A stretch of DNA of 64,000 nucleotides from Qingshengfaniella sp. (GTDB lineage: Bacteria; Pseudomonadota; Alphaproteobacteria; Rhodobacterales; Rhodobacteraceae). The notes below the pieces were generated by a model that saw only the letters and a program-made list of their open reading frames with translations, made no database searches and had not been told where the DNA came from. Location: assembly GCA_047971485.1 (NCBI GenBank), contig JBKDZR010000043.1:163-64162 (forward strand), in the 5' to 3' direction. Below are positions 4,776 through 37,103 of this stretch, piece after piece; positions within the stretch are counted from its first letter, which is position 1; each line of letters starts with the position of its first letter. The translations under genes and the position numbers were made by a program.

Positions 4776-5405
4776 ATGCGACGGAGAGGCAGTGTGAAAC
4801 GGGCAGACATCGCAGCCGTGATGGCTGTGGTCATTGCGTCGATCCCGGCGTATGCGGGCGCTGCGGACAGTGCGACCAGTCGCAGCCGGGGGGCGATCTT
4901 CAGCAAGCAAACCGCCTTTCTGGATGGGCGGGCAGCGGTTCAATACGAGAACTCGGATCGTCTGAGGCCACAGAACAGTTTTGACAGCTTTCCGAACGTG
5001 CCAGATCTGGCCATCACCCGTGGTAACGCGAAGATGCGCAAGCTGTATCAGCCGATGGCCGAGGCGGCGGCGCGCAAGCATGGGGTGCCGGAACGGATTT
5101 TCGTACGGCTGGTTCAGCAGGAAAGCGCGTGGAATCCGCGTGCCGTGAGCCACAAGGGGGCGATCGGGCTGGCTCAGCTGATGCCCCAGACCGCCCGTCA
5201 TCTGGGGGTCGATCCGCAGGATCCGAAACAGAACCTGGAGGGCGGGGCGCGGTATTTGCGGCGCCAGTACGAAGCCTTCGGAAGCTGGATGCTGGCGCTG
5301 GCCGCCTATAATGCCGGGCCGGGTGCGGTGGAAAAGCACAAGGGAGTGCCCCCCTATCGCGAGACCAAGAATTACGTGAAGGTCATTCTGGGCTTGCCGG
5401 GGTGA
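4776..5405 (+). CDS. lytic transglycosylase (SLT domain), secreted
   Basis: [27 protein letters not shown]...[13 protein letters not shown] and a signal-like N-terminus. An alternative GTG start at 4794 has a better GGAG spacing. Confidence 0.85.
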
Positions 5406-5642
5406 GGCGCGTTGCATTGCATGTTGAAATCATGTCGCGACAAGGCTGATAGGGATTTTTCAATTAACAAGCGTGTTCAATCAATGCGCTATGGTGTTTG
5501 CAGAGATTTGGAATGATCTGGAAACACTAACCTCTACACCCTGTTTGTATGGCCATTCTCTCGGCATGGATTGGCGCAACAGTTTGAAAGCGCTGTGTCC
5601 TGATAGGGGGGGTGCAGCCCTTCCTTCGACCAGGTCGTGCCA

Positions 5643-5737
5643 CGTTCATTCGTATTCACACGATGCGCGCTAAGTCTTTGACAACGCATGTTCGATGAGC
5701 AGAAAGCCGGCATCCATTTTTGGGCAACATGCTCTAA
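5643..5737. repeat. copy A of a 95-nt non-coding element (second copy at 59545-59639)
   Basis: Hand alignment to 59545-59639 is gapless with 70/95 identities. Conserved blocks: CGTTCAnTCGTATTCACACGA, GTCTTTGACAnCGCnTGT, TTTTG and ATGCTCTAA. Lies in an AT-rich convergent gap. Confidence 0.7.
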
Positions 5738-5763
5738 GGTGCCGAAACAAGGGCAGGAAGAAA

Positions 5764-6876: not shown

Positions 6877-7137
6877 TTTATATTTATCTTTCAGTGTTTT
6901 CTGCCGTTTTGCGGTGCTCTTAACACTTATCTGCAGTGTCTGAAGGTTGGCTTAAAATACAGGCCTTATCAACCGCAATCCACGGGGTGATGATAAAACT
7001 TTATGATTATTTCTGTATTTTGGCACATGCCTTGATCCCGCAAACGGGTTCGGCAAAAGGGGAATACGGCCTTTTCGGGGGACCGGGCAGGCCCAAACCG
7101 TCCCCGTCCTGACAAAGGGCAGGGCGGATGGGGTGGA

Positions 7138-7707
7138 TCAGTCCTTGCCGCGGGCTAGGGCGGCAACACCGGTGCGGGCAACCTCGACCAGGCCGAGGGG
7201 GCGCATCAGGTCGGTAAAGGCATCAACCTTGTCCGGCGTGCCGGTGATTTCAAAGACAAAGCTTTCCAGTGAGGTATCGACCACCTTTGCACGAAAGATA
7301 TCGGCGATGCGCAGGGCCTCAACCCGGTGATCGCCTTCGCCGGCGACCTTGATCAACGCCAGTTCGCGTTCCACGGAACTGCCCTCGACCGTCAGGTCAT
7401 GAACCTCGTGGACGGGGACCATGCGTTCCAGCTGGGCCTTGATCTGCTGGATCACCTGGGGGGTCCCGGTAGTGACGATGGTGATCCGCGACAGATGCCC
7501 GGCATGGTCGGTCTCGGCCACGGTCAAGCTGTCGATATTGTAGCCGCGCCCGGAGAACAGGCCGATCACCCGGGCCAGAACGCCGCTTTCGTTATCCACC
7601 AGCACGGCGATGGTGTGGCGTTCCAACACTTCGCTCATATGCGACCGCAGATCATAGGCCGAATGTTTCGAGGCGCCCTTGCGGATTTTCAGTGCAGACA
7701 TGTTCAT
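7138..7707 (-). CDS. ilvH: acetolactate synthase small (regulatory) subunit (ilvH/ilvN)
   Basis: ACT domain HTIAVLVDNESGVLARVIGLFSGRGYNIDSLTV. 189 aa. Confidence 0.95.
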   Translation of the reverse strand: MNMSALKIRKGASKHSAYDLRSHMSEVLERHTIAVLVDNESGVLARVIGLFSGRGYNIDSLTVAETDHAGHLSRITIVTTGTPQVIQQIKAQLERMVPVHEVHDLTVEGSSVERELALIKVAGEGDHRVEALRIADIFRAKVVDTSLESFVFEITGTPDKVDAFTDLMRPLGLVEVARTGVAALARGKD

Positions 7708-7803
7708 CGCTCCCCACCTGTCACGTGCCGATCGCCCGGCTTTACCGTGGAGCCGGGCGGGATTGAAGTGGTTTCTGTCGCGCCGACCGGGGTCAGCGGG
7801 AAA

Positions 7804-8848
7804 TCACAGGTTCGGTTCCGAGCGCAGGCCCTGCCAGATGGCATAGGTCATCAGCAGCAGGACGGTGGTCGGGCCGACGATCAGCACGAAAAGCAGCAGC
7901 AGGAAGGCCAGCCCCATGTTGAGCTCGGACAGCACCTTGACGCCGCCATCCAGTCCGCGCAGCACGGAAATCAATGCCACCGATGTGATCAGGGTGATCA
8001 GGACGACCTCGGTGGTGGCGCTGACCGGAATGCCGAACAGTTCGTTCAATCCGGCATTGGCCTGGGTCGCGCCAAAGCCCAGCGATGTGGCCAGCCCGAA
8101 CAGGGTGGAGACACGGCCACGATGTCGGTCACATGGCCGGTCCAGCCCCAGACACGTTCACCGAAGATGGGATAAAAGGCCGAGCGGATGGTCAGGGGCA
8201 GGCCCTTGTTGAAGGAAAACAGCGCCAGCGCCAGCCCGACAATGGCGTAGATCGCCCACGGATGCAGACCCCAGTGAAAGATCGTGGCGGCCATTCCCAG
8301 CCGGGCTGCGGCATGGGTATCGCCTTCGGCCCCGCCCAGGGGCGCCCAGTCGGTACGCGCGCCGCCGCCTTCGGGGCGCACAACCCCGTCATAGGCGGTT
8401 GAGAAGTGGCTCAGGGGCTCGGCGACGCCGTAGAACATCAGCCCGATGCCCATGCCCGCGGCGAAGAGCATGGCGAACCAGCCCAGATAGGAATAGTCCG
8501 GTGTCGCATCACATCCGCCCAGACGGACCCTGCCCAAAGGGGAAACGATCAGGAACAGGCAGAACAGAACGAAGAAATCGGCCGCGCGGAAAAAGAACCA
8601 GTCGAATGTATTGGTCCGCGCTGGACGCAGCCAGCCGAAGACGGCGGTGGATTGTTCGGGCAGAAGCAGCGCGTACAGTACAAATCCGATGATCAGGGCG
8701 GCGGAGATCCCGAAAACCGGATTGTGGACGTCATAATCGATTTGGGCCACTTGCCCTTCGATATTGCTCTGTCCCAGTTCATAGTCGGTTTCAATGATTT
8801 CAGTGGGCCTTCCGGTTCCGGAATACCCAGATCGTTTTCATCTGACAC
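7804..8848 (-). pseudogene. BCCT-family (betaine/carnitine/choline) transporter remnant: two frameshifts and 3' truncation
   Basis: The BCCT sequence reads across three frames:
- (GTG 8848) SDENDLGIPEPEGP
- TEIIETDYELGQSNIEGQVAQIDYDVHNPVFG...FYPIFGERVWGWTGHVTDIVAV
- STLFGLATSLGFGATQANAGLNELFGIPVSATTEV...
The frame breaks are near 8804-8809 and 8105-8116. The reading frame ends at 7804 after about 348 codons, whereas BCCT proteins normally exceed 500 aa. Confidence 0.75.
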
Positions 8849-9165
8849 GTCTTGTCCCGTTCGTTACGTCCGGCGATGCAGCCGGCTTTGGCGGTTCGCG
8901 GCGGATCGTCCACCGTGCGCGGGGTGCATGGCCGGTTTTGTGCGCCATGCGATTTGTCGCGGTTGCGTTATGGGCACGGCCGCGATTCGTGTCATGCTAA
9001 CATGTAAGGATTCAGAGGGGAAACCGCCCCCCAGTCTGGCCAAGTCTGCTCAGCCGGGTACGGCTGGCAGAGGGCCGGGCAGATCGGTCCTGGCGGGGGA
9101 TGGACCACGATCTGCCCCTGCGCTTTTTTCTCGAAACCGGCTGTCGGTTCCCCGGGGGGCTGGCC

Positions 9166-10917
9166 TCAGACCAGAACCGCGCCGCTTGATCCGATGGCAT
9201 CCTTGGTCGAGGCATCGCCCAGCAGCATCTTGTTATGGGGTTCTCCCGAGGGGATCATCGGGAAGCAGTTTTCATGCTTCTCGACCAGACAATCGAAGAT
9301 CACCGGCCCGTCATAGTTCAGCATTTCCATGATCGCGTCATCCAGATCGGCCGGATCCTTGCACAGGATGCCCTTGGCGCCGAAGGCCTCGGCCAGTTTG
9401 ACGAAATCGGGCAACGCCTCGGACCAAGACTGGCTGTAGCGTTCGCCATGCAGCAATTGCTGCCACTGACGGACCATGCCCAGCCGTTCGTTGTTCAGGA
9501 TGAACTGCTTGACCGGCAGGCGATACTGCACGGCGGTGCCCATCTCCTGCATGTTCATCAGCCAGGAGGCCTCGCCGGCGATGTTGATCACCAGCGCTTC
9601 AGGGTGGGCGATCTGCACGCCGACAGAGGCCGGCATGCCGTAGCCCATGGTGCCCAGACCGCCCGAGGTCATCCAGCGGTGCGGATCCTCAAAGCCCAGA
9701 TACTGGGCGGCCCACATCTGGTGCTGGCCCACTTCGGTGGTGATGTAGCGGTCATGGCCCTTGGTCAGGGCCTCCAGCCGTTCCAGCGCGTATTGCGGCT
9801 TGATGGTCTTTTTCGAGTCCGTGTAGCGCAGGCAGCGGATATCGCGCCATTTCTGGATCTGGCTCCACCATTTCGGCAGGGCGGCCGCGTTGGTCTTGCT
9901 GCCGCGTTCTTTCCACAGGGCCAGGGCATCGGCCAGAACGCTGGTGACATCGCCGATGATCGGCACATCGGCGTGGATCACCTTGTTGATGGACGAGGGG
10001 TCGATGTCGATATGGACCTTCTTCGATTTAGGACTGAAATCCTGAACGCGGCCCGTAATCCGGTCGTCGAACCGGGCGCCGACATTGATCATCACATCAC
10101 AGCCATGCATGGCGAGGTTGGCCTCATACAGGCCGTGCATCCCCAGCATCCCCAGCCAGGCCTCGCCCGAGGCCGGATAGGCGCCCAGGCCCATCAGGGT
10201 CGAGGTGATGGGAAAGCCGGTGGCGGCGACGAATTCACGCAAAATCCGGCTGGCCTCAACGCCCGAGTTGATCACCCCGCCGCCGGTATAAAAGATCGGC
10301 CGCTCGGCGGTTTCGATCAGTTCGACCATGCGCAGGATCTGTTCGGGATCGCCCTTGGTGCGCGGCTGGTAATGCTTGGTTGAGGCCTTTTGCCGGGGCG
10401 TGTAGGGCGCGCTGGCAAACTGCACATCCTTGGGAATGTCGACCAGAACCGGGCCCGGGCGGCCCTTGGTGGCGACATGAAAGGCCTGATGGATGACATC
10501 GGACAGCTCGCCCGTGTCCTTCACCAGCCAGTTGTGCTTGGTGCAGGGGCGGGTGATGCCCACGGTGTCAGCCTCTTGAAAAGCGTCATTGCCGATCATG
10601 AAGGTCGGAACCTGGCCGCACAGAACGACAACGGGGATCGAATCCATCAGCGCGTCGGTCAACCCGGTCACGGCATTGGTTGCCCCGGGCCCCGAGGTCA
10701 CCAGACAGACGCCGGGCTTGCCGGTGGACCGGGCATAGCCCTCGGCGGCGTGAACGGCGCCCTGTTCATGGCGGACCAGAATGTGGCGGATGTCGTTTTG
10801 CTGGAAGATCTCGTCATAGATCGGCAGTACCGCACCGCCCGGATACCCGAAGACTACATCGACACCCTGATCCTTCAGGGCCTGAATCACCATCTTCGCA
10901 CCAGTCATCTGGGTCAT
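9166..10917 (-). CDS. ilvI: acetolactate synthase large (catalytic) subunit (ilvI/ilvB)
   Basis: TPP-enzyme motifs GAKMVIQALKDQGVDVVFGYPGGAVLPIYD and GGLGTMGYGMPASVG. Start moved to ATG 10917 (GGAG upstream) because the track start at 10980 lies inside the attenuator U-tract. Confidence 0.95.
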   Translation of the reverse strand: MTQMTGAKMVIQALKDQGVDVVFGYPGGAVLPIYDEIFQQNDIRHILVRHEQGAVHAAEGYARSTGKPGVCLVTSGPGATNAVTGLTDALMDSIPVVVLCGQVPTFMIGNDAFQEADTVGITRPCTKHNWLVKDTGELSDVIHQAFHVATKGRPGPVLVDIPKDVQFASAPYTPRQKASTKHYQPRTKGDPEQILRMVELIETAERPIFYTGGGVINSGVEASRILREFVAATGFPITSTLMGLGAYPASGEAWLGMLGMHGLYEANLAMHGCDVMINVGARFDDRITGRVQDFSPKSKKVHIDIDPSSINKVIHADVPIIGDVTSVLADALALWKERGSKTNAAALPKWWSQIQKWRDIRCLRYTDSKKTIKPQYALERLEALTKGHDRYITTEVGQHQMWAAQYLGFEDPHRWMTSGGLGTMGYGMPASVGVQIAHPEALVINIAGEASWLMNMQEMGTAVQYRLPVKQFILNNERLGMVRQWQQLLHGERYSQSWSEALPDFVKLAEAFGAKGILCKDPADLDDAIMEMLNYDGPVIFDCLVEKHENCFPMIPSGEPHNKMLLGDASTKDAIGSSGAVLV

Positions 10918-21487: not shown

Positions 21488-21684
21488 CCTGTCGTGCTGA
21501 TGCGGGGCCGTTGGGCCCTGCATCGGTGGCGCGGATAACATCTCATTAAGGACCGTGTTCGGATGAGCACGGGTTACCGGCGCCTCAACCCTGAATGGTG
21601 CGCAAGATTGCCAGCCCGGGGATCGGCGGCTATCACCAGCCGGTCCACGTGTTGGCGTTAGCACTGTTTCGTGAGGTTCGGGCC

Positions 21685-24102
21685 ATGTCCGTAGATGGGT
21701 TCAAGGAAGCGCTTGTTCACAACTTGAAATACCGTTTGGGCAAGGACCCGGATACGGCCCAGCTGCGCGACTGGCGTCTGGCCTTGTCCCATGTGGTTCG
21801 CGACCGGATCACCGACCGCTGGTTCGATGCGACCCGCCAGACCTATCGCAGTCAGCACAAGCGCGTCTATTACCTGTCGATGGAATTCCTGATCGGCCGC
21901 CTGCTGGAGGATGCCATCGTCAACCTGCGGCTGGAGGATCAGGCCAAGGCTGCGCTGACGGATCTGGGTCTGTCGCTGCATGAGGTGTGGATGGACGAAC
22001 CCGATGCCGCGCTTGGCAATGGCGGGTTGGGGCGGTTGGCGGCCTGTTTTCTGGAAAGCCTGTCAACCCTGGGCGTACCGGCCTTCGGCTATGGGATCCG
22101 CTATGAACATGGCCTGTTCCGCCAGCGGTTTGAGGATGGTCGCCAGATCGAGGACCCCGAGGACTGGCTGAGCCAGCCGGATGCCTGGGCATTTGAGCGG
22201 GCCGAGGCTGCCTATGGTGTCGGATTTGGCGGTGATGTGCGGGATGGCGGCCTGTGGATGCCGGCAGAAACCGTGGTGGCCGAGGCCTTCGATACCCCCA
22301 TGGTGGGCTGGAAAGGAACCTGGGCCAACACGCTTCGCCTGTGGTCGGCCCGTCCTGTCCATGTCTTCGATCTGGATCGGTTCAATCGCGGCGAATATGC
22401 CGGCGCGGCCGAGGCCGAGGCGGCGGCCCGCACGATCAGCCGGGTGCTCTACCCCGATGACACGACCGAACCGGGCAAGGAGTTGCGGCTGAAGCAGGAA
22501 TACTTCTTCACCGCCGCCTCGTTGCATGACATCCTGCGCCGGTTCCGCTCGGAATATGATGACCTGTCGAAGCTGCCCGCCAAGGTTGCCATTCAGCTGA
22601 ACGATACTCATCCTGCCATCGCCGGTCCGGAACTGGTGCGGCTGTTGCATGACGAACAGGGCATGGGCTTTGATGACGCCATGGATACCGCACGGGCCTG
22701 TCTGAACTACACCAACCACACGTTGTTGCCCGAAGCGCTGGAGCGCTGGTCCGAGGGGTTGATGGGCCGGATTTTGCCGCGTCACATGCAGATTATCGCC
22801 CGCATCGACGATCGCCACGCGGCGCGCAACCCATCGCGCAAGCTGTCGATCCTTGGCGAGGGCGAGGTGCGGATGGGGGCCCTGTCCTTCATCATGGCGA
22901 ACCGGGTCAATGGCGTTTCGGCCCTGCATACCGATCTGATGAAAACCACGGTGTTTGCCGAGCTGAACCGCCTGCATCCCCAACGGATCGTCAATCAAAC
23001 CAACGGGGTCACGCCGCGCCGCTGGCTGCTGTCGGCCAACCCGGCGCTGTCGGGCCTGATCACCGACGCGATCGGGGACAGTTGGGTTGGTGATCTGGAG
23101 CATCTGAAGGGTCTGGAGGGCCATGTTGAAGATGCGGGGTTCCGCGATGCCTTTGCCGGTGCCAAGCGGGCCAACAAGGTGGCCCTGTCCAACTGGTTGC
23201 GCGAGACGATGGAAATTCCGGTCGATCCGGACATGATGTTCGATGTGCAGATCAAGCGTATCCATGAATACAAACGCCAGCACATGAACATCCTGGAAAC
23301 CATCGCATTGTGGCAGGAGATCCATGACAATCCCACTGCCGACTGGACGCCCCGGTTGAAAATCTTCGGTGGCAAGGCCGCGCCGGGATACTATTTCGCC
23401 AAAGATATCATTCGCCTTATCAATGATGTGGGTGCCGTTCTTAATTCAGATCCGGTAACCAGCCCTTATTTGAAGCTGGTCTATCCGCCCAATTACAACG
23501 TCACCCTTGCTGAACGTCTGATCCCGGCTGCCGATTTGTCCGAACAGATCTCGACCGCTGGCAAGGAGGCGTCGGGCACGGGCAACATGAAGTTTGCCCT
23601 GAACGGGGCGCTGACCGTGGGAACGCTGGATGGCGCCAATGTCGAGATCAGGGATCTGGTCGGGGCGGAGAACTTTTTCCTGTTTGGCATGACCGCCGAT
23701 CAGGTCGTGGCCTGTCGCGAACGCCCGCATCATGCCGCAGAGGCGGTCCAGCGCGACCCGCGTCTGGCGCGGGCGCTTGAAGCGCTGCGCAGCGGGATTT
23801 TTGCCGACGGTGATCCTGATCGCCATCGCGGCATTGCCGATAATCTGACCCATGCCGATTATTTCTGCGTCTGTTCCGATTTCGCTGACTATTGGCGGGC
23901 CCAACGTGCGGTTGACAGCGCCTTTGTCGATCAGGCGGAATGGATGCGACGGGCAGCGCTGAATACCGCGCGCTCCGGGTGGCTGTCGTCGGACCGGACT
24001 ATTCGTGGCTATATGACAGATATCTGGGATGTTACCCCGGCGCTGCTTAGTGCCGATGCGGGGGCAGCGGGCAGAAAGGATAGCGAAAGACACGCGGGAT
24101 AA
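21685..24102 (+). CDS. glgP: glycogen/maltodextrin phosphorylase
   Basis: [28 protein letters not shown] and the PLP-Lys region [36 protein letters not shown]. Confidence 0.95.
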
Positions 24103-24128
24103 ACGACGCGGGTAGACAAGGGACCGAC

Positions 24129-26357
24129 ATGACGCGACCGCCAGCATCCTCTGGGACCACCGAGACGGGGCCGACCGATGGCGCGGTGGCACGGCGGATT
24201 GCCGAGGGCCGGTGCGGCGATCCCTTTGCCTGGCTTGGGCCGCATGAGGTTGCGGGGGCGATCCTGTTGCGCGTTTTTCAGCCCGATGCGATCCGTGTTG
24301 CGGCGCTGATCGCTGGGGGGACCCATCCGTTGGGGTGCCTGGACGACGTGGCGGGGATGTTCTGTGGGCCGATCCCGGCGGCCGCGTCCTATCGGCTGCG
24401 CGCGGAAGGGGCCGATGGTACGGTCTGGGAGTGGGACGATCCCTATCGCTTTGCCCCGGTTCTGGGCGAGATGGATGAATATCTGTTGGCCGAGGGCAGC
24501 CATCAGCGCCTCTGGCAGGTTCTGGGCGCCCATCCGCGGGTCCATCAGGGTGTGCAGGGCACGTCTTTCGCGGTGTGGGCCCCGAATGCCAGCAGGGTTT
24601 CGGTGGTTGGGGATTTCAACGGGTGGGACGGTCGCCGTACCCCGATGCGCCGCCGTGGTAGCGTCGGGATCTGGGAGATCTTTCTGCCGGGTCTGGGCGA
24701 GGGGACGGTCTATAAGTACGAGTTGCGGGACCGGGACGGGGGGCTTTTGCCGCTCAAGGCTGATCCGGTCGGCTTCGGGTCTGAACATCCGCCGGCCAAT
24801 GCCAGCGTGGTGCGCGATATTTCAGGGTATGGCTGGTCGGATGCGGACTGGCGGACGGCACGGGCCGCGCGCAACGGGCGCCAGGCCCCGATCTCGATCT
24901 ACGAGGTCCATTTGCCATCCTGGAAACGCCGTGTGGCCGAGGGCAACCGCCCGATTTCCTATCGCGAGGCGGCCGATGAACTGGTGACTTATGTCCGCGA
25001 CATGGGCTTTACCCATATCGAGCTGCTGCCGATCAGCGAATATCCGTTCGACGGGTCCTGGGGCTATCAGCCGGTTGGTCTGTTCGCGCCGACCATCCGC
25101 CACGGCCCCCCCCATGAATTCCGCGATCTTGTCGATGCGGCCCATCGTGCCGGGATCGGCCTGATCCTGGATTGGGTGCCCGGGCACTTTCCAACCGATG
25201 CCCATGGTCTGGGGCGGTTCGATGGCACGGCGCTTTATGAACATGCCGATCCGCGCGAGGGGTTTCATCAGGACTGGAACACGCTGATCTATAATTTCGG
25301 CCGGACCGAGGTGCGGAATTTCCTGGTCTCGAATGCTCTGTACTGGCTGGAGGAATATCATGCCGATGGGCTGCGGGTAGATGCGGTGGCCTCGATGCTG
25401 TATCGCGATTATTCGCGCGGGCCCGGCGAATGGGTGCCCAATATCGATGGCGAGCGCGAAAATTACGAAGCTATTGATCTGTTGAGGCGGATGAATACGC
25501 TTGTCTATGGGCAACAGCCGGGGATCCTGACAGTTGCCGAGGAATCGACCGCCTTTCCCGGTGTGTCGCGGCCGGTGGAAAACGATGGCCTGGGGTTCGG
25601 CTTTAAGTGGAACATGGGCTGGATGCATGACACGCTGGCCTATATCGGGCGTGATCCATTGTACCGACGCCATCATCACCACCAGATGACCTTTGGTTTG
25701 CATTATGCCTTCAGTGAAAATTTCATCCTGCCGATCAGCCATGACGAGGTGGTTCACGGCAAGGGATCCATGCTGGCGCGCATGCCGGGGCAGGGGGCTG
25801 AACGCTTCGCCAACCTGCGGGCCTATTACGGGTTCATGTGGGGCCATCCGGGCAAGAAGTTGTTGTTCATGGGGCAGGAATTCGCCCAGGCGGCGGAATG
25901 GGATTTTGATGGATCCCTGGATTGGGCAGCGGCCGATAGGGCGCCCCATGCCGGGGTGCAGGCGCTTGTTCGAGATCTTAACCGGCTGTATGCGGCCTGC
26001 CCGGCCCTGCACCATCACGATTGCGATCCCGCCGGTTTCCAGTGGATCGAGGCCAGCGACGCCGAGCGTTCGATCTTTGCCTGGATCCGTTGGGCCGAGG
26101 CGGGTGAGGTGCCGGTTGTCGTACTGTGCAACTTTACCCCGATCGAGCGGCCCGGGCTGCGGATCGGGTTGCCGGCGGCGGGGGCCTGGCGTGAGATCCT
26201 CAACACCGATGCCAGGACTTATGGCGGTGAAGGGCGCGGTAATATGGGCCAGATTCTGGCGCAGGATCAGCCCAGCCACGGTCAGCCGGCCAGTGCCACG
26301 CTGTATTTGCCGCCGCTGTCCTGCATCATGCTGACGCCGGCGGATACGGCTTGCTAA
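24129..26357 (+). CDS. glgB: 1,4-alpha-glucan branching enzyme
   Basis: 742 aa. GH13 motifs [27 protein letters not shown] and [12 protein letters not shown]. Confidence 0.97.
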
Positions 26358-26398
26358 CGAAGACGGGATAGGACGGACACACCACGGGGGGAGGAACC

Positions 26399-27664
26399 AT
26401 GCCACGACCTAGAACACGGCTGACCGGACGAAGCATGGCCTTTGTTCTGGCCGGGGGGCGGGGGGCGCGCCTGCGGGAATTGACCGATCGCCGGGCCAAG
26501 CCGGCGGTCTATTTCGGCGGCAAGGCGCGGATCATTGATTTCGCCCTGTCGAACACCATGAATTCAGGGATCCGCAAGATGGCAATCGCGACCCAGTACA
26601 AGGCCCACAGCCTGATCCGGCATTGCCAGCGCGGATGGAATTTCTTCCGGGCCGAGCGCAACGAATATCTCGATATTCTGCCGGCCAGCCAGCGCGCGGG
26701 CGAGGATCGTTGGTATCGCGGCACGACCGATGCGGTGACCCAGAATATCGATATCGTCGACAGTTACGATGTGGATTATATCGTCATCCTGGCCGGCGAT
26801 CATATCTACAAGATGGATTATGAACCGATGCTGCGCCAGCATGTGGACAGTGGGGCGGATGTGACCATCGGCTGTCTGACCGTGCCGCGTCATGAGGCCA
26901 GCGCCTTCGGTGTGATGGCCGTTGATGAAACCGATCGGATCGTCAGTTTTTTGGAAAAGCCTGCCGATCCCCCCGGAACGGCGACGGATCCTTCGGTTTC
27001 GCTGGCATCCATGGGGATCTATGTGTTTTCATGGCCATTTCTGCGCGCGCTTTTGCTGGAGGATGCCGACGATCCGGGATCGAGTCATGATTTCGGTACG
27101 GATCTGATCCCCAAGATCGTGGCCGGGGGGAAGGCCCAGGCCCATCGCTTTTCCGACAGCTGTGTCAAGCGCGATGCCAGCGCCCCGGCCTATTGGCGTG
27201 ATGTGGGCACATTGGATGCGTTCTGGAAGGCGAATATCGACCTGACGGATTTTGAACCGGAACTGGACCTGTGGGACAGGGATTGGCCGATCTGGACCTA
27301 TTCGGAACAGACGCCGCCGGCAAAATTCATCCACGATGCGCCGGATCGGCGCGGGTCGGCCGTGTCCTCGCTGGTGGCCGGGGGCTGTATCGTCTCGGGG
27401 ACGACGATTCGAAAATCGCTGTTGTTCACCAATGTGCACACCAACAGTTATGCCGTGCTCGACCAGGCGGTGGTGATGCCCAATGTTGTTGTCGAGCGTT
27501 CGGCGCGGCTGTCGCGGGTGGTGATCGACCGCGGTGTGCGGATCCCGGCCGGGCTGGTTGTGGGCGAGGACCCGTCTGAGGACGCGGCTTGGTTCCGGGT
27601 TTCCGACGGCGGTGTGACCTTGATCACCCAGGACATGTTGGACAGAAGGGCAGCGCATCAGTGA
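26399..27664 (+). CDS. glgC: glucose-1-phosphate adenylyltransferase
   Basis: [36 protein letters not shown]-type motif. 421 aa. Confidence 0.97.
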
Positions 27665-29100
27665 TCAGGGTTTTGTCGATTGCTTCGGAATGTGCGCCCT
27701 TGGTCAAGACCGGGGGGCTGGCCGATGTGGCAGGGGCCTTGCCTGCTGCGCTTGGCGCCATCGGGGTTGAGATGGTCACACTTCTGCCGGGGTATCCCCA
27801 GGTGCTGGCGGCCTGCGAGGGGACAGGCACCGGTGTTCTGGAAGAGGACGATCTTTGGGGCGGTCCGGCCCGGGTGTTGCGCTGTCGGGCGGCCGGGCTG
27901 GATCTGTTGGTGCTGGATGCGCCCCATCTGTTCGATCGGCCGGGCAATATCTATCTGGGTCCGGATGGGCGCGACTGGCCGGATAACCCGATGCGTTTCG
28001 CTGCCCTGTGCCGGGTGGCTGCCCGTATCGGGGCCGAAGGCGCTGGAGGATGGATGCCACATATCCTGCATCTGCATGACTGGCAGGCCGGTCTGACGCC
28101 TCTGTATCTGGGGGCGCGATCGGCGCGTGCATCGGTTGGGACCGTTCTGACCATCCACAATATCGCCTTTCAGGGGCTTGCCCCGGCCGCATTGCGTGCC
28201 GATCTGGGATTGCCGGAGGCGGGGTTCGATGTTGAGGGGTATGAATATTTCGGCCAGATCAGTGCGCTGAAGGCCGGGATCGTCTATGCCGACCGCTTGA
28301 CCACGGTCAGCCCGACCTATGCGCGCGAATTGACCACACCGGAATTCGGGATGGGGCTGGATGGCGTGTTGCGGTCGCGGGCCCAGAAATTGCGCGGGAT
28401 CCTCAATGGGATTGACACGGGCAGTTGGAATCCGGCCACTGATCCGGCCCTGGTTGCGCCTTACAAGACGCCGCGTGGCAAGGGGCGCAACAAGGCTGCG
28501 CTCCGGGCCGAGTTCGCCCTGCCCGCCGCCAGCGGACCCCTTTGTGTGCTGATTTCGCGTCTGACGGAACAGAAGGGGATCGACCTGCTGTTGCAGGCCG
28601 TGCCCCGGCTGCTGGCGCGGGGGGGACAGCTGGCGCTGTTGGGCAGTGGCGGTGCCGAGATCGAAACGGTGGTCCGCGACGCGGCCGCAGTGATGCCCGG
28701 GTTCGCTGCGCGGATCGGCTATGACGAGGCGCTGTCGCATCGGATGGTCGCCGGCGCAGATGCCATTCTGGTGCCGTCACGCTTTGAACCCTGTGGCCTG
28801 ACCCAGATGTTCGGCCTGCGTTACGGGGCGCTGCCGCTGGTGGCGCTGACCGGTGGGCTGGCCGATACGGTGATCGATGCCAACCCGGCGGCGCTGCGGG
28901 CCGGGGTGGCAACGGGGGTGCAGGTTCATCCGTTGACGGTGGGGGCGCTGGCCGATGCTTTCGACCGGCTGTGCGATCTCTATGCTTCGGATCATTGGCC
29001 GGTGTTGCAGCGCAATGCCATGCGCCAGGAGGTCGGCTGGCAGGCTTCTGCGCGGGACTATGCTGAACTTTATGCAGAGTGCCTGCCTGACCATGGGTGA
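27661..29100 (+). CDS. glgA: glycogen synthase (ADP-glucose type)
   Basis: GTG 27661 overlaps the glgC TGA (GTGA). N-terminus (V)[23 protein letters not shown]-terminal GT-B motif [12 protein letters not shown]. Confidence 0.95.
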
Positions 29101-29110
29101 CGATCTGAAA

Positions 29111-31177
29111 ATGACTGCGGGGCGCGCCTATCCGCTGGGCGCGACATTCGATGGCGAAGGAGTGAATTTTGCCATCTTTTCGCAGCATGCCACGCGGCTG
29201 ACGCTGTGTCTCTTTTCCGATGAGGACGACCGGGAATGTCAGGTCGATTTGCCGGAACGTGACGGCGACGTCTGGCATGGGTATCTGACAGGTATCCGTC
29301 CTGGCCAGCGCTATGGCTATCGCGCCCACGGCCCCTATCGACCGGATCAAGGGCACCGCTTCAATCCCAACAAGCTGTTGGTCGATCCCTATGCCAAACG
29401 GCTGACCGGCCATCTGCGCTGGCATGATGCGTTGATGGGCTATACTCCCGGCGCGGCGCGGCTGGACCTGAGCTTTGATCCCCGCGACAGTGCGCCCTAT
29501 ATGGCGAAAAGCGTGGTGGTCGATCCCAGCTTTTGCTGGGGTGAGGATCATCCCCCCCGCCATCCGATCGCGGAAACGGTGATCTACGAGGCCCATGTGA
29601 AGGGCCTGACCCAACTGCATCCAACGGCGGCCCCCCAAGGACGTTTTCTGGGGCTGGCCTCGGATCCAATGCTTGAGCACCTGACGCGCCTGGGGATCAC
29701 GGCGATCGAATTGCTGCCGGTTCAGGCCTTTCTGAATGACCGGTTTCTCGTCGAGAAAAGCCTGACCAATTACTGGGGCTATCAGACCCTGGGCTATTTC
29801 GCCCCTGATCCGCGCTATCTGGAGCGCGGCGGGATTGAGGAATTCCAGCAGATGGTGGCCCGGCTGCACAGCGCCGGGATCGAGGTGATCCTGGATGTGG
29901 TCTACAACCATACCTGCGAAGGCAACGAAATGGGCCCGACACTGGCCTTTCGCGGGCTGGACAATCGCAGCTATTACCGGCTGGCCGAGGATCCGCGCTT
30001 TTACATCAATGACACGGGCACCGGGAACACGATTAATATCCAGCATCCGATGGTGCTGCGCATGGTCATGGATTCCCTGCGCTACTGGGTCGAGGTGATG
30101 CATGTCGACGGGTTTCGTTTCGATCTGTGTTCCACCCTGGGGCGGACGGCGCGGGGCTTTGAGCCGGGCGCGGCCTTTTTCGATGCGATCCGCCAGGATC
30201 CGGTGTTGACGCAGTTCATGCTGATTGCCGAGCCTTGGGATATCGGCCCGGGGGGCTATCAGTTGGGCGGCTATCCGGCACCGTTTCTGGAATGGAATGA
30301 CAGGTTCCGTGATGGTGTGCGGCGGTTCTGGCGCGGCGATCCGGGGCGTGCACCGGATCTGGCCGACCGGCTGACTGGATCGGCGATGCAATTCGATCAC
30401 TCCGGGCGCCCGGCGACGGCCTCGGTCAATTTCCTGACTGCCCATGACGGGTTCACCCTGACCGATGTGGTCACCTACAATCATAAGCACAACGCGGCCA
30501 ATGGCGAAGACAACCGCGATGGCCATGGCGAGAACTTTTCCGACAATATGGGCGTGGAGGGGGCGGCCGAGGATCCGGATATCGCGGCGGCGCGGGCCGG
30601 GCGGCGGCGCGCGATGATGGCGACGTTGCTGATGTCGCAAGGGACGCCGATGATCTTGGCGGGCGATGAGATCGGCAACAGCCAGCAGGGCAACAACAAC
30701 GCCTATTGTCAGGATAATGCCATCAGCTGGATCGACTGGGCGCAGGCCGATGAGGCCTTTCTGGCGTTTGCCGCGCGGCTGATCGCCTTCCGCAAGGCGC
30801 ATCCGATCCTGCGCCAGAAACGTTTCATGCATGCCCGCGAGCGGATGCTCGACGGGATCGAGGATCTGTTCTGGTGGCGCGCCGATGGCACCGAGATGCA
30901 GGCCGATGACTGGCACGATCCGGAAGGGACGCTGGTATGTGCGGAAATGCGCACGGCCTCGGGGACGCCGGCCTATGCGGCGCTGAATGCGGCGGTTTTC
31001 GCGGTGTTCAATGCCGGCGAGGCGGTTGCGGTCAAGGTGCCTGCCTGTCCGGAGGGGATGGTCTGGATGCGTCGGATCGACAGTGCCGATCCGGCCGCGC
31101 CGGCCACCGCCGTTGCCGACACGATCGAGGTTGCGGCCCAATCGGTGGTTGCCCTGTCACTGGACCCCGCGCCGTGA
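29111..31177 (+). CDS. glgX: glycogen debranching enzyme
   Basis: MTAGRAYPLGATFDGEGVNFAIFS. GH13 motifs LDVVYNHT, GFRFDLCS, LIAEPWD and FLTAHDGFTL. An alternative ATG at 29093 overlaps the glgA stop. Confidence 0.93.
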   Translation: MTAGRAYPLGATFDGEGVNFAIFSQHATRLTLCLFSDEDDRECQVDLPERDGDVWHGYLTGIRPGQRYGYRAHGPYRPDQGHRFNPNKLLVDPYAKRLTGHLRWHDALMGYTPGAARLDLSFDPRDSAPYMAKSVVVDPSFCWGEDHPPRHPIAETVIYEAHVKGLTQLHPTAAPQGRFLGLASDPMLEHLTRLGITAIELLPVQAFLNDRFLVEKSLTNYWGYQTLGYFAPDPRYLERGGIEEFQQMVARLHSAGIEVILDVVYNHTCEGNEMGPTLAFRGLDNRSYYRLAEDPRFYINDTGTGNTINIQHPMVLRMVMDSLRYWVEVMHVDGFRFDLCSTLGRTARGFEPGAAFFDAIRQDPVLTQFMLIAEPWDIGPGGYQLGGYPAPFLEWNDRFRDGVRRFWRGDPGRAPDLADRLTGSAMQFDHSGRPATASVNFLTAHDGFTLTDVVTYNHKHNAANGEDNRDGHGENFSDNMGVEGAAEDPDIAAARAGRRRAMMATLLMSQGTPMILAGDEIGNSQQGNNNAYCQDNAISWIDWAQADEAFLAFAARLIAFRKAHPILRQKRFMHARERMLDGIEDLFWWRADGTEMQADDWHDPEGTLVCAEMRTASGTPAYAALNAAVFAVFNAGEAVAVKVPACPEGMVWMRRIDSADPAAPATAVADTIEVAAQSVVALSLDPAP

Positions 31178-33063
31178 CTGGGCCTGTCGCGGAACTGGCG
31201 CGTCGGGCCGGTATCCTGTCACGTTATCGCGGAACCGATCAGCGTTGGGTTGACGTTCCGCCCGAGACAATCGTGGCGGTGCTGTCGGCCATGGGGCTTC
31301 CGGCGGATGGGGCCGGTGCGGCGGCCTTTCTGTCCGAGACCGGCACAAGCCATCGGCTGCTGCCGCATTGGCATGTTGCCGGGCTTGGCCGCGCGCCTGA
31401 CCTGTCATTGCCAGAGGATGCGGTCTGGGCGCTGTGTCTGGAGGACGGGACCCAAACCGAGGGCCGTGGTCCGACAGTGCCGCCACTGCCCCTGGGGCGT
31501 CACAACTTGACCTGCGGTGCCGAGACCTGCTGGGTGTTGGTCGCGCCCCCCGCCTTGTCGGATCTGGGCCGGGGATGGGGGCTGACCGTGCCGCTTTACG
31601 GACTGCGCGCGCCGGCCATGGGGGGGCTGGGCGATTTCGGCGATCTTGGGCTTGTCATGGCGGGGCTTGCGGCTGTCGGCGCAGGCTTTGTCGGGATCAA
31701 TCCAATCCATGCCGGCTTTCCCACCGCACCGGAGATGTTCAGCCCCTATGCCCCATCAAGCCGACGGCGGCTGAACCCGCTGCATCTGAGATGTGGGGCC
31801 GATGATCAGGGCCGGGGGAGCGATCTGGTCGATTATCCGGCCAGCACGGGGACGCGGCTGGCCAGCTTTCGTGCGGCGTTTCAAGGGGCTGCGCTGGATC
31901 CGGCCTTCCAGGCTTGGCGCGCTCAGGAAGGCCCCGATCTGCAGCGTTTTGCCACACATCAGGCGATCAGCGGGGTCCATGGGCCGCTCTGGCACCGCTG
32001 GCCTGCGGCGTTGCAGGATCCTGACGCCGCCGAAGTGGCGGCTTTTGCCGGAACACATGGCGAAGACATCGGCTTCCACGCCTGGCTGCAATGGCAAGCC
32101 GAGGGCCAGCTGGGCCTGTTGGCCGAACAGGCGCGGGCCCTGTCCTGCGGGCTGTATCTGGACCTGGCCGTTGGCACCCATCCGTATGGTGCGGAAACCT
32201 GGGCGGCACCGGCGCAGTTCGTTCGGGGGGTGTCACTGGGGGCGCCGCCGGACGGGTTCGCCCCCGAGGGCCAGACCTGGGGGTTGGCCCCGTTCAACCC
32301 GCTGACGCTGGCAGCGCAGGGCTTCGCGCCTCTGGCCGAAACCCTGCGCTGCCAGTTGCGCTTTGCCCGTTTGCTGCGGATCGACCATGTGCTGGGCTTT
32401 GAGCGGGCCTTCTGGGTGCCTGAAGGCGGGGGGCTGCCGGGGACCTATGTCACCATGCCGCGCGCCGCGATGCTGGCCGTCGCCCGGATTGAGGCCACCC
32501 GCGCCGGCGCCACGCTGATCGGTGAGGATCTGGGTAATATCCCCGAGGGCCTGCAAGAGGCTCTGGCCAACAGTGGGATCCTGGGCTGCCGTGTGGCCCA
32601 GTTCGAACGTCACTGGCAAGAGGATGGTCGTTTTCGCGCCGCCGCCGATTATCCCGCCGATACGCTGGCCTCTTTCGGGACCCATGATTTGCCGACCTGG
32701 GCAGGCTGGCGCGCGGGGCGGGATATCGGTGTGGGCCGTGATCTTGGGCGGATCGGCGCCGAACAGGCCGAGATCGCAACAGCGGCGCGGATGCGGGACG
32801 TTGCGGCCTTTGATCGGGTTGCAGGCACGGGCACGGACGGCGATGATGCGCTGAACAGTTTTCTCGCCCGGACCGGATCACGGCTGGTTGCGTTACAAAT
32901 CGAGGATATCCTGGGGCTTGCGGATCAGCCTAACCTGCCGGGAACGGTGGATGAATACCCCAACTGGCGTCGCCGGCTGCCCCTGGGTCCGGCCGAATTT
33001 GTACAAGATCCCCGCCTTCTGCGGGCGGCGGACATCATGGCCCGAAACGGGCGGAGGACCTGA
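31174..33063 (+). CDS. malQ: 4-alpha-glucanotransferase (amylomaltase)
   Basis: GTG 31174 overlaps the glgX TGA (GTGA). GH77 motifs LRIDHVLGFERAFWVP, IGEDLGNIPEGL and FGTHDLPT. Confidence 0.9.
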   Translation: MTGPVAELARRAGILSRYRGTDQRWVDVPPETIVAVLSAMGLPADGAGAAAFLSETGTSHRLLPHWHVAGLGRAPDLSLPEDAVWALCLEDGTQTEGRGPTVPPLPLGRHNLTCGAETCWVLVAPPALSDLGRGWGLTVPLYGLRAPAMGGLGDFGDLGLVMAGLAAVGAGFVGINPIHAGFPTAPEMFSPYAPSSRRRLNPLHLRCGADDQGRGSDLVDYPASTGTRLASFRAAFQGAALDPAFQAWRAQEGPDLQRFATHQAISGVHGPLWHRWPAALQDPDAAEVAAFAGTHGEDIGFHAWLQWQAEGQLGLLAEQARALSCGLYLDLAVGTHPYGAETWAAPAQFVRGVSLGAPPDGFAPEGQTWGLAPFNPLTLAAQGFAPLAETLRCQLRFARLLRIDHVLGFERAFWVPEGGGLPGTYVTMPRAAMLAVARIEATRAGATLIGEDLGNIPEGLQEALANSGILGCRVAQFERHWQEDGRFRAAADYPADTLASFGTHDLPTWAGWRAGRDIGVGRDLGRIGAEQAEIATAARMRDVAAFDRVAGTGTDGDDALNSFLARTGSRLVALQIEDILGLADQPNLPGTVDEYPNWRRRLPLGPAEFVQDPRLLRAADIMARNGRRT

Positions 33064-33067
33064 AAGA

Positions 33068-34699
33068 ATGCAGCGTTTGACCATAGCCACGCACCCGATC
33101 GACGGGCAGAAACCCGGAACCTCGGGGTTGCGCAAAAAGACCCGTGTGTTCATGGGCCCCCATTACCTGGAAAACTTTATTCAGGCGATCTGGCAGGGGA
33201 TTGGTGGCATTGCCGGCAAGACCCTGGTTTTGGGGGGCGACGGGCGGTATTTCAACGATCGGGCGGCGCAGTTGATCCTGCGCATGGCGGCGGCCTCGGG
33301 GGCGAAGAAGATCATCGTCGGGCGCGATGCCCTGTTGTCGACCCCGGCAGCCTCCAACCTGATCCGCAAGCGCGCCACCGATGGCGGTATCATCCTGTCG
33401 GCCAGCCACAATCCTGGCGGCATGGATGAGGATTTTGGCATCAAGTTCAACATGCCCAATGGCGGTCCGGCCCCTGCCGAGGTGACCGACCGGATCTTTG
33501 CTGCCACCACCAGCCTGACCTCCTATGACATCATCGAAGCACAGGATGTGGATCTCTCCGCCCCTGGAAAGACGGTTCTGGCCGGGATGGAAATCGAGGT
33601 GGTCGATCCGGTTGTGGATTACGTTGCGCTGATGGAAGAGATATTCGATTTCAAGGCGTTGCGAGCCCTTTTCGCCAACGGGTTTACCATGAAATTCGAT
33701 GCCATGCACGCAATCACCGGCCCCTATGCGGCGGCGATTTTCGAAGATGCCCTGGGGGCGGCGCCGGGCAGTGTGATCAATGCAACGCCCAGCCCGGATT
33801 TCGGCGGCGGGCACCCCGACCCGAACCCGATCTGGGCCAGGGATCTGGTGGATCTGATGATGGGGCCCGAGGCGCCGGATTTCGGCGCCGCCTCGGACGG
33901 AGATGGGGACCGTAACATGATCGTCGGCCGGGCGGCCTATGTGACCCCGTCGGACAGTCTGGCAGTGCTGGCGGCCAACGCCCATCACGCCCCGGCCTAT
34001 GCCGGTGGGTTGAAGGGGGTGGCGCGTTCCATGCCGACATCAAAGGCGCTGGACCGGGTGGCCGCAGCCCGGGGGCTGGCCTGTTATGAGACGCCGACGG
34101 GCTGGAAATTCTTCGGCAACCTGCTGGATGACGGGCGCATCACGCTGTGCGGTGAGGAAAGCGCGGGGACCGGATCGGATCATGTGCGCGAAAAGGATGG
34201 GGTCTGGGCCGTGCTGCTGTGGTTGTCGGTTCTGGCTGGAACGGGCAAGTCCGTGGGCGCGATCCTGGCCGATCACTGGGCCGAATTCGGGCGCAACTAC
34301 TATTCCCGCCATGATTACGAGGCGGTGGACAGTGCAGCGGCTAATGGGCTGATGGACGGGCTGCGGGCGCGGCTGGGCGATCTGCCTGGGCAGGCGGTTG
34401 CCGGGTTGACGGTCGAAACGGCTGATGAGTTCGCCTATGACGATCCGGTCGATGGCAGCCGGGCCGAGGGGCAGGGCATTCGCATCGGCTTTGCCGGGGG
34501 GGCGCGGGCCGTGTTCCGGCTGTCCGGCACCGGGACCGAGGGTGCGACCTTGCGTGTTTATCTGGAAAGCCTGGAAACCGATCCAGCCGCCCAGGCCAGG
34601 GATCCGCAGGCGGCGCTGGCGCCGGTGATCGCTGCCGCCGATGCCATTGCCGGGATCGCGGAGCGGACGGGACGACAGGCGCCCGACGTGCGCACCTGA
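33068..34699 (+). CDS. pgm: phosphoglucomutase (alpha-D-glucose phosphate-specific)
   Basis: GQKPGTSGLRKK, phosphoserine loop ILSASHNPGG, Mg loop AASDGDGDRNMI, and CGEESAG. Confidence 0.95.
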   Translation: MQRLTIATHPIDGQKPGTSGLRKKTRVFMGPHYLENFIQAIWQGIGGIAGKTLVLGGDGRYFNDRAAQLILRMAAASGAKKIIVGRDALLSTPAASNLIRKRATDGGIILSASHNPGGMDEDFGIKFNMPNGGPAPAEVTDRIFAATTSLTSYDIIEAQDVDLSAPGKTVLAGMEIEVVDPVVDYVALMEEIFDFKALRALFANGFTMKFDAMHAITGPYAAAIFEDALGAAPGSVINATPSPDFGGGHPDPNPIWARDLVDLMMGPEAPDFGAASDGDGDRNMIVGRAAYVTPSDSLAVLAANAHHAPAYAGGLKGVARSMPTSKALDRVAAARGLACYETPTGWKFFGNLLDDGRITLCGEESAGTGSDHVREKDGVWAVLLWLSVLAGTGKSVGAILADHWAEFGRNYYSRHDYEAVDSAAANGLMDGLRARLGDLPGQAVAGLTVETADEFAYDDPVDGSRAEGQGIRIGFAGGARAVFRLSGTGTEGATLRVYLESLETDPAAQARDPQAALAPVIAAADAIAGIAERTGRQAPDVRT

Positions 34700-34718: not shown

Positions 34719-37103
34719 ATGACGTCGGACACGGGGACGATCAGGGCCGAGATGGACAAGGCAGAGGGGCTGGCCGATTGGTGCCGGGCCCTGCTGACCA
34801 CCCGTGAAACGGCGTTTGAGGCGCATCAGGCGATTGCCCGGCGGCTTGGCGCGCATCTGAAGGATGGGGTGGCGTTGTTCGGGTTCTGGACGCCGGAACT
34901 TCTGGATCATCGCGTGCCTGATGGCGATGTCTTTCTTGAAATCCTCCGCCCCGAAGACATGCCGGACCTGACCGTTGCCCATCAGGAGATTCGCTTTTCT
35001 CGGGTCTGTCTGCCGGTGGTGCGCTGCGATGCCCACAGCTTTGCCGCGGTCAGCGGTCTCCGGGCGGGGCGCCGTGTCGGGTAGGCGATTTCTACGCGCT
35101 GGTCTGGCGCGATGCCGAGGATGTGTGGCACCGCATCCTGGATCCGATGGCGGCGTCGCTGCCCTTTGGTGCCTTCGCTCCGGCCGAGTTTTACGACACC
35201 GGTGCGATGCAGCAGGGGCGTGCGGATGCCGCCTATTATGCGGCGCTGAAAGGTGCGGCGCCGCATAAATTTGGCCCGCCCGCAAATATCCTGCAAATCC
35301 ATGTGCCGACCGCCACCGCCGGGGGCACCCTGGCCAGTCTAACCCGGCTTTATGAGCGGTTGGGGGAACGGGTGCGGCAGGGGTTGCAACTGGAACCGGT
35401 GGATGAACTGTTTCTGGGCTATGACGCGGTTCAGCTGTTACCGGTAGAGCCGGCAACCGTCTATGAAACGGGCCATCCCTTCTGGGCTGAAACCGCCCAT
35501 GACGGGGATGGCGTGACGGTGCACTTGACCCGGCCCGACACCACCAACTGGGGCTATGACGTGGTGATCTCGGGGATGGCGACGGTCAACCCGGTGCTTC
35601 TGGAAAGCGGGCGCCCGGATGAATTGGTCGATCTGGCCGCAGTTTTGCATAACTTTCCGGTCAAGCCCAAGATGTTGGTCCTTGATGTGGTGTTTGGCCA
35701 TTCCGACAATCAGGGATTGGGCGCGCTCAACCATCATTTCTTTGCCGGTCCGAACATGTATGGCCAGAATCTCGATTACCGGGATCCGGCCGTGCGGGCG
35801 ATCTTGCTGGAAATGCAACGTCGCAAGGTCAATTTCGGCGCGGACGGGGTGCGGGTCGACGGGGCGCAGGATTTCAAGTTCTGGGACATGCGCGATCAGG
35901 TGCTGTTGCATGATGATGATTACCTGCAGGCCATGGCCGATATCGGGCAAGAGGTGGCCGGCACGCGATACCGCCCCTGGTTCGTGTTCGAGGATGGCCG
36001 GTCCTGGCCACAGGAGGACTGGGAACTCAGTTCCACCTATCGCGCGGTGATCGATGGGCAGCGCGACGATGATGTGTTTCAGTGGGGACCTTTAACTTTC
36101 GCCCATAACACACCGTTTTTATACACACTTTGGCTGTCAAAATTCTGGCGCATCCAGGAGATTCTGGATTGGGGTGCGAACTGGATCTCCGGCACGGCCA
36201 ACCATGATACCCTGCACCGGGGCACCCAGGTGAACCCGGAACTGAACATCAACACGCGCCTCGGCGATACCCATATGGAGATCCTCGACAAGACCTATGA
36301 CAACCCGGCCGTGGCGATGCTGACCTATGGGGCCCTGCCCGGGGTGCCGATGGATTTCCTGAACGCCACGGCGCGGGCCTCGTGGGGGTTCATTCGCAAT
36401 CAGGATGACCGGTATGGGGTCAAGGTCGTGGCGGAAGAGGCGATCAGCCTGAAATGGCAGGTGGATGAATACAGCTATTCGGTGCATCGCAATTTTCGCC
36501 GGATGAAGGATCTGGGCTTTGGCACACGGCCCGAATTGGCGCGGTTCTTCGAATTTCTGCCCGCGCTGGTCGATGTGACGGGCTATGATCTGGGGGAAAT
36601 CGCGCGGTTGCTGAATGCGGCCGAACCGGCGCTGGCCGGGCCGGGCGCCTTCACCGAGGCCAATCTCAAGGCGATTGCCCGGGCCTGGATGGATGACATG
36701 CATGATTATTGCAATGTCGCCAATTCACTGACCGGGTTGGATCCGCAGCAGACCAGCTTCATGTTCGCGCTGCGCCGGTTCCGGCGGAAAAAACGTCTGG
36801 TTGCGGCATGATCTGGGGCCAAGGGACCGTTTCGATTATCTACGTCCGATCGAGAGGCGGGTGGTCTTCGCCTCGTTGCGCCACGGACCGGCAGGCGAGC
36901 AGGTGTTCACCCTGATCCATATGGAGGGCGGGCAGACCGCCGAGATCGACCCACTGCGCCTGCCAATCGACGGGTTGGACGGCGAGGGCTGGCGGCTGGC
37001 GCTGAAAACGCCGGGCATTGGCGATGACTATCTGGGCGGCCCGATTGTCCTGCGTGACAGCATGGGGGTGATCTTTACCCGCCCAGCGGGGGGCAGGGGG
37101 TGA
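34719..37103 (+). pseudogene. divergent GH13 (alpha-amylase superfamily) enzyme with TreZ/E-set-like N-domain, interrupted by two frameshifts
   Basis: One protein reads across three track ORFs (34641-35084, 35123-36811, 36801-37103).
- Frame breaks lie in GGGCGGGG (about 35061-35080) and in an A6 run (36788-36793).
- All four GH13 regions are present: LDVVFGHSD, GADGVRVDGAQDF, WFVFEDGRSW and GTANHDTL.
- The C-terminal beta-domain continues in the third ORF. Confidence 0.7.

Follow-up and report, generated by a model that had tools for sequence, protein, structure and literature searches.

Breakdown of the compatible solute glucosylglycerol (GG) in Synechocystis requires Slr1670, a GHL5 protein with homologues in alpha-proteobacteria and archaea, and it is for this protein only that GG hydrolysis has been demonstrated, by genetics as well as biochemistry (PMC5002435). 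In a later source, Slr1670 is renamed GghA and described as splitting GG into glucose and glycerol upon salinity down-shift (PMC6753628). For heterotrophic bacteria, one other way of degrading GG is known, namely through GGP of Marinobacter, which is genetically linked to GG synthesis but belongs to a different family (GH13_18), shares 13% identity with GghA and acts by phosphorolysis instead of hydrolysis (PMC10873239). Here, a gene of Qingshengfaniella sp. (Rhodobacteraceae) is described which lies at the end of a glycogen cluster within a stretch of 64,000 nucleotides, hereafter called the window (contig JBKDZR010000043.1, positions 163 to 64,162). Judged by its sequence, this locus is an orthologue of gghA, the gene for glucosylglycerol hydrolase of family PF14872 (GHL5), which is full-length by descent but disrupted by two shifts of the reading frame. 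With a probability of roughly 0.7, the gene has been recently and truly inactivated, and was lost together with the GG synthesis gene ggpS in an erosion of osmoadaptation functions.

The gene comprises about 794 codons at positions 34719-37103 of the window, and its translation passes through the frames in the order 0 -> 2 -> 0. It consists of the following parts:

34719-35084, plus strand: N-terminal piece of the gghA-like (GHL5) gene, in frame 0, ending with a premature TAG at 35082-35084
35076-35080, plus strand: break 1, a one-base deficit; GTCGG, 5 nt against 6 nt in orthologues, with a change from frame 0 to frame 2
35081-36811, plus strand: central catalytic piece, in frame 2, with VGDFY from 35081 and a TGA at 36809-36811
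36788-36793, plus strand: break 2, one surplus base within or directly beside an AAAAAA run, with a change from frame 2 to frame 0
36789-37103, plus strand: C-terminal piece, region of the beta-sandwich 'domain C', in frame 0, with the natural stop TGA at 37101-37103

The start ATG (34719) is located 19 nt past the stop of pgm. In frame 2, no stop interrupts the stretch that begins ahead of 35087 and runs to the TGA at 36809-36811, and 36801-37103, in frame 0 again, forms the third piece. While the N- and C-terminal pieces share a common frame, the 1.7 kb between them are displaced by one base. Together, the three pieces cover consecutive parts of the single PF14872 model of 809 positions: the N-terminal piece matches positions 2-104 (E 6.7e-18) and aligns with residues 4-118 of the intact orthologue from genome G017, the central piece matches positions 110-637 (E 8.6e-192, 640 bits against a cut-off of 23.7), and the C-terminal piece covers positions 670-789 (in two matches, 670-716 and 713-789) and aligns with residues 692-788 of the G017 protein. 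If the gene is read through, with X at break 1, a protein of 794 residues is obtained which aligns end to end with the orthologues and displays no internal stops and no further lesion besides the two shifts. Based on the consecutive PF14872 positions and the end-to-end alignment with intact orthologues of 787-793 aa, the pieces represent one gene and not three. The original prediction, made from the window alone, had already proposed one reading frame spread over three frames, and the in-silico repair of this frame, which it had suggested as a check, agrees with that proposal.

Separate genes, which the same prediction had kept in view as a contrary outcome, are contradicted by single-ORF (open reading frame) orthologues in conserved position. 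A naturally split gene, in which either all three ORFs or solely the central ORF of 562 aa (from GTG 35123) would be functional, is very unlikely: even though the central ORF encodes the complete catalytic barrel, lacks none of the invariant residues and could start at the GTG, every orthologue is a single ORF, and near the junction no separate start is available to the C-terminal piece. In the modelled fold, moreover, the first strands begin directly at the junction, and according to textbook knowledge enzymes of GH13 type depend on their flanking domains for stability.

Both breaks were mapped on the level of DNA and codons by comparison with the orthologues on contigs L008, L007 and L001, and on the protein level by comparison with 119 orthologues. 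Upstream of break 1, the conserved residues G117 and R119 (the latter present in 118 of 119 orthologues) are read in frame 0 up to base 35075, while the invariant VGDFY follows in frame 2 from base 35081. Hence, the deficit must lie within GTCGG at 35076-35080, where orthologues carry two codons (D/E, then Q/R/E). Both breaks had been expected to fall in homopolymers. This holds for break 2 in or next to AAAAAA, but break 1 lies outside GGGCGGGG (35062-35069), just 3' of it, and at no long homopolymer. At break 2, the ten nucleotides AAAAAACGTC separate the invariant RR and W codons, whereas orthologues have nine and read FRR-x-N/R-P-WLR in protein. The deficit at break 1 would halt translation after 121 codons, and the surplus in the A6 run at 36788-36793 would represent a second lesion.

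Since the net shift over both breaks is zero and A6 might permit rare transcriptional slippage at break 2, programmed recoding, i.e., ribosomal frameshifting or transcriptional slippage yielding the full-length protein, was considered as well. It would need two distinct events, however, one of -1 and one of +1. Site 1 (CGT GTC GGG TAG) contains no slippery heptamer, A6 is shorter than efficiently slipping runs (textbook knowledge), and neither site is shifted in 15 other genera or in more than 100 orthologues. As neither break has a conserved counterpart in any orthologue, recoding is improbable in the extreme, and the same observation also speaks against a naturally split gene.

A protein search covering 5.8 billion proteins gave 1,723 homologues, the best 120 of which are 76-83% identical over the central piece, mostly 768-812 aa long and all equipped with PF14872. 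Orthologues of about 790 aa are found in more than 100 Rhodobacteraceae, each encoded by a single ORF. The named top homologues stem nearly all from this family (Roseibacterium, Tranquillimonas, Jannaschia, Palleronia, Rhodovulum, Rubricella), and many close relatives carry the NCBI name 'glucosylglycerol hydrolase'. As an NCBIfam scan of the three pieces matched no family, this name must have a source other than the models of that library. When 1.84 billion cluster representatives were searched exhaustively with HMMER, only 173 proteins (E <= 0.001) were recovered, either full-length with about 750-1,050 aa or present as short fragments; the library is without names, and we read these proteins as the PF14872 family, which would make it a compact one. 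Identity to the central piece is 52% for a cyanobacterial 'glucosylglycerol hydrolase' (Limnospira/Lyngbya cluster) and 44% for a haloarchaeal cluster (Halobellus). A member of this family is expected to be a single polypeptide of about 770-900 aa with N-domain, barrel and C-domain, which the window copy, being split over three frames, is not.

In comparison with GghA (Slr1670) of Synechocystis sp. PCC 6803, the window gene belongs to the same Pfam family with a match to the whole model, and its central piece shares about 50% identity with a cyanobacterial protein that bears the name glucosylglycerol hydrolase. Moreover, co-occurrence with ggpS is common to the GHL5 proteins of cyanobacteria and Rhodobacteraceae (PMC5002435; PMC6753628). 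Slr1670, however, is a cyanobacterial protein of 885 aa, whereas the window-type enzyme is alphaproteobacterial, measures about 790 aa and is broken in this copy; unlike cyanobacterial gghA, the window gene does not adjoin ggpS/glpK but follows malQ-pgm in a glycogen cluster. The intact relatives of about 790 aa would, by analogy with GghA, split GG into glucose and glycerol as salinity falls. The hydrolysis by GghA is reportedly a result of Kirsch et al. 2017 (cited in PMC6753628), and we know of no assay of GG breakdown by a GghA-type enzyme outside cyanobacteria.

According to the original prediction, the gene encodes a GH13 enzyme of no subfamily that could be named, being neither GlgB, GlgX, TreY, TreZ, TreS nor GlgE, possibly with a glucosylglycerol-hydrolase-like or a novel specificity. 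The exclusion of the six enzymes was right, and the glucosylglycerol-hydrolase-like guess was correct as well. In place of an unnamed GH13 subfamily, though, the gene falls into a named family, PF14872/GHL5, whose members include the studied GghA, so that a novel or uncharacterised enzyme is not the case (PMC5002435, PMC6753628).

The relation to GH13 is nevertheless apparent. All four predicted motifs (LDVVFGHSD, VRVDGAQDF, FEDG and ANHDT) are present in the central piece with their Asp/Glu/Asp context, and residues D200, H205, R256, D258, E302, D303, H373 and D374 (central-piece numbering), which are invariant in 33 diverse aligned members including the window copy, have all been kept. PF00128, the GH13 model, is matched by none of the pieces, the sole Pfam family at E <= 0.01 being PF14872, and a phmmer search with the central piece found no chain in the PDB. 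A family profile of the 33 diverse members matches GH13 pullulanases, TreZ, isoamylases and GlgB with E-values of 6e-8 to 1e-6 in conserved regions I-II, while regions III and IV were assigned by motif only. For the central piece, an AlphaFold2 model (pLDDT 91, pTM 0.92) was obtained, whose best PDB match in Foldseek is TreZ 2bhu (E 1.2e-13, TM 0.49, 17% identity, probability 1.0), and the top 50 PDB matches are nearly all GH13 enzymes. The TreZ-like N-terminal part of E-set type and the GH13-type signature noticed earlier were both recognised correctly, and PF14872/GHL5 can be regarded as a remote relative, or clan-mate, of GH13. With the group of TreZ (PDB 2bhu, 3vgb), pullulanases and isoamylases, it shares an E-set-like N-domain, a (beta/alpha)8 barrel and motifs of the Asp/Glu/Asp type. 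Differences concern the low identity of only 15-17% at a TM of about 0.49, a long helical region after the barrel of the window model (residues about 440-574), which has no stated counterpart in the TreZ group, and the substrate, probably a small glucoside in case of GHL5 but an alpha-glucan in the TreZ group.

A further line of evidence comes from a survey of the same family with one genome for each genus, 201 in total. GHL5 is present in 16 of them; only the window genome (G000) has a split copy, while in the 15 others the match lies within one open frame that spans 791 aa or more without stops. A GgpS match (TIGR02398) exceeding the curated cut-off is found in 29 of the 201 genomes. All 16 GHL5-positive genomes are among these, while none of the 172 GgpS-negative genomes carries GHL5, and this co-occurrence represents independent genomic support for a role of alphaproteobacterial GHL5 in acting on GG. 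In the window genome, the synthase gene is located on another contig:

G000 contig C40:9352-10974 (= L029:1366-2988), plus strand: ggpS, TIGR02398, 651 bits (cut-off 569)

This ggpS is itself interrupted by an in-frame TAG at C40:9838-9840 (L029:1852-1854), where the G017 orthologue has Glu; in the alignment, DWSTFREVNWAFAEAA of G017 stands against DWPTLR*VNWAFAEAA of the window genome. Among the 29 ggpS genes, it is the only interrupted one. Just 5' of it, a gene for an S6PP-like HAD phosphatase (L029:696-1490) is intact. TIGR02399, the cyanobacterial-type GG-phosphate phosphatase, had no match in the genome, but the control for this search was silent as well. In three other genomes, GHL5 and ggpS are found 3.5-15 kb apart on one contig (G112:C1:700251-707406, G166:C34:143411-160369 and G073:C24:49444-68633), so that the genes for making and degrading GG are in part physically linked, as in cyanobacteria. 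In another genus, a weak TIGR02398 match below the cut-off (G072:C16:160158-160783) is in two pieces with a TGA inside and may be a further decayed GT20 (GgpS/OtsA-like) gene.

Whether the gene is decaying or merely affected by sequencing errors had been left open in the original prediction. A genome-wide baseline and the nonsense codon of ggpS now favour decay. For the baseline, ORFs from 1.2 Mb of the relative G017 were compared with the window genome by tblastn, resulting in 446 non-overlapping orthologue pairs with 153,194 aligned residues. Frameshifts were found in the GHL5 gene only, which has two of them, and in none of the 445 others (about 450 kb of coding DNA); the reverse control gave no credible frameshift in G017. 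Hence, indel errors are not widespread in the assembly, and two indels within a single gene of 2.4 kb amount to strong clustering. Credible disruptions of any kind among the 446 genes are limited to gghA, ggpS and a gene for an AddA-like helicase, and the chance that three random hits in 446 genes include both gghA and ggpS is about 3e-5 by our own arithmetic.

These numbers bear directly on the possibility of an artefact of sequencing or assembly, in which gghA would be intact in the organism and the two indels, perhaps also the TAG of ggpS, would be draft errors. Such an artefact is unlikely, although it retains an appreciable share of the probability. In its favour, and against a true loss, stand the draft state of the assembly (156 contigs, 90.5% complete), the position of break 2 in an A6 run as a classic site of indel errors, and the otherwise healthy state of the gene, in which no internal stops are found and every family-invariant residue is retained. 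Relative-rate tests against the three closest orthologues were not significant either (one of six sisters tested gave p = 0.002), and some background of disruptions or base errors must be assumed, as the AddA-like helicase gene also contains an in-frame TAG. No same-species sequence was found by the protein search or by a search of genome and metagenome contig collections for the exact DNA pattern around break 2. As for the function, GG-hydrolase activity has been demonstrated for the cyanobacterial enzyme alone, from which that of the Rhodobacteraceae clade would follow by analogy. An artefact is in turn at odds with the clustering of the frameshifts, with a break 1 outside any homopolymer, and with the single open frames of all seven glycogen-cluster genes upstream as well as of clpP and clpX downstream. 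The functionally coupled ggpS carries a lesion of a different type, namely a base substitution to TAG.

At 333 columns of at least 97% conservation, the read-through protein deviates 7 times, a modest excess over its orthologues, which deviate 2.0 times on average and never more than 7 times. Even with the nearest orthologue, protein identity is no higher than 77%, and synonymous sites are saturated for dN/dS. Given that the residues are kept and the rate is not accelerated, the loss, if real, must be very recent. We infer that the lesions are carried by the DNA of the cell itself and are not confined to the assembly. An altered decoding of TAG, by reassignment or by suppression, was rejected as an explanation, since the genome has no suppressor tRNA, 260 long ORFs terminate at TAG as a normal stop, and the two in-frame TAGs correspond to different residues in the alignments, Glu and Tyr. 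A second frameshifted gene, apparent on contig C69, was likewise discarded because the G017 query ORF was over-extended upstream of prs, and several further tblastn 'stops' turned out to be natural gene ends, regions upstream of starts or antisense ORFs. The third disrupted gene is the following:

G000 contig C19 around 58047, minus strand: AddA-like (UvrD-type) helicase-nuclease gene with TAG at the conserved Tyr of VGDxKQSIYxFxGA

The TAGs of the helicase gene and of ggpS both lie within a CTAG tetranucleotide, possibly by chance (n = 2).

Apart from the two GG genes, the only transporter of the BCCT family recognised in the assembly is broken as well:

7804-8837, minus strand: remnant of a BCCT osmolyte transporter (PF02028) between ilvH and ilvI

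This remnant, 27 kb upstream of the GHL5 gene, matches PF02028 in two frames at positions 1-185 (8046-8837) and 185-272 (7804-8157) of 485, with the final ~210 positions of the model missing, and no other BCCT match occurs anywhere in the assembly. Being truncated in addition to frameshifted, it is not explicable by sequencing error. Ectoine synthase (PF06339) was not found in the 90.5% complete assembly, which is weak evidence as the EctC control was silent too, and OpuAC (PF04069) gave only a marginal match (E 1e-3) in the whole assembly. Three broken genes, no ectoine synthase match and a marginal OpuAC together suggest a genome poor in osmoprotectant systems. If gghA is truly inactivated, its synthesis partner on another contig would be disabled by the nonsense TAG and only a remnant of the BCCT importer would be left, and the GG cycle would recently have been lost under relaxed selection for osmoadaptation; the cause of the loss would presumably be ecological. 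Viewed by itself, the gene is an ordinary pseudogene in a family that already has a name, and 'glucosylglycerol hydrolase, frameshifted' would be a fitting annotation. Synthase, hydrolase and osmolyte importer all disabled in one genome, in contrast, would be a case from nature of gene loss at the level of a pathway, and one that might give a clue to the habitat.

The position of the gene at the end of the glycogen cluster, downstream of pgm, was recognised correctly from the start:

21595-34699, plus strand: glycogen cluster glgP-glgB-glgC-glgA-glgX-malQ-pgm, assigned by Pfam, outer ORF limits, each gene a single open frame

Downstream of the GHL5 gene, clpP-clpX follow. Whether orthologues are intact and also follow pgm had been named as a check, and both are observed: besides the intact copies in 15 other genera, the order malQ-pgm-GHL5 is found in L008, L007, G073, G101, G166, G181, G190 and G099. 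L008, a JGI metagenome contig, carries glgB-glgC-glgA-glgX-malQ-pgm-GHL5 with clpP-clpX about 3 kb further 3', and L007 offers a similar context; these two contigs hold the closest orthologues, both intact. In the six genomes, malQ is located 1.6-1.9 kb 5' of GHL5 on the same strand, while in G106 it adjoins GHL5 but is convergent, and in G017 (Rubricella aquisinus by protein search) GHL5 occurs in a different context. Overall, the glycogen-cluster order with terminal GHL5 is present in 6-7 of the 15 other GHL5-positive genera and is thus a recurrent, conserved arrangement in this branch of the Rhodobacteraceae.

The recurrent order malQ-pgm-gghA points to glycogen and the GG pool being linked genetically. 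Baran et al. 2017 (cited in PMC6753628) are said to have observed an exchange of labelled carbon between glycogen and GG in a cyanobacterium. ADP-glucose, the product of GlgC, is the substrate of GgpS (PMC6753628). This use of ADP-glucose, together with the carbon exchange, makes a location of gghA in the glycogen cluster plausible. More speculative, and rather doubtful, is the wider idea that GHL5 of Rhodobacteraceae serves as a glycogen-operon enzyme which moves glucose between GG and the glycogen/ADP-glucose pools, possibly by transglycosylation or with a broader alpha-glucoside specificity, and that the joint loss of ggpS, gghA and the sole BCCT transporter reflects a marine-type lineage shedding osmoadaptation in a niche of low or constant salinity.

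On contig L007 (positions 4126-9829; an ENA metagenome contig which carries P0005), several glycogen genes appear as short genes, namely glgX with 450+187 aa, malQ with 337 aa and pgm with 150+269+115 aa. In contrast to the window genome, the L007 assembly hence seems to be rich in frame breaks.

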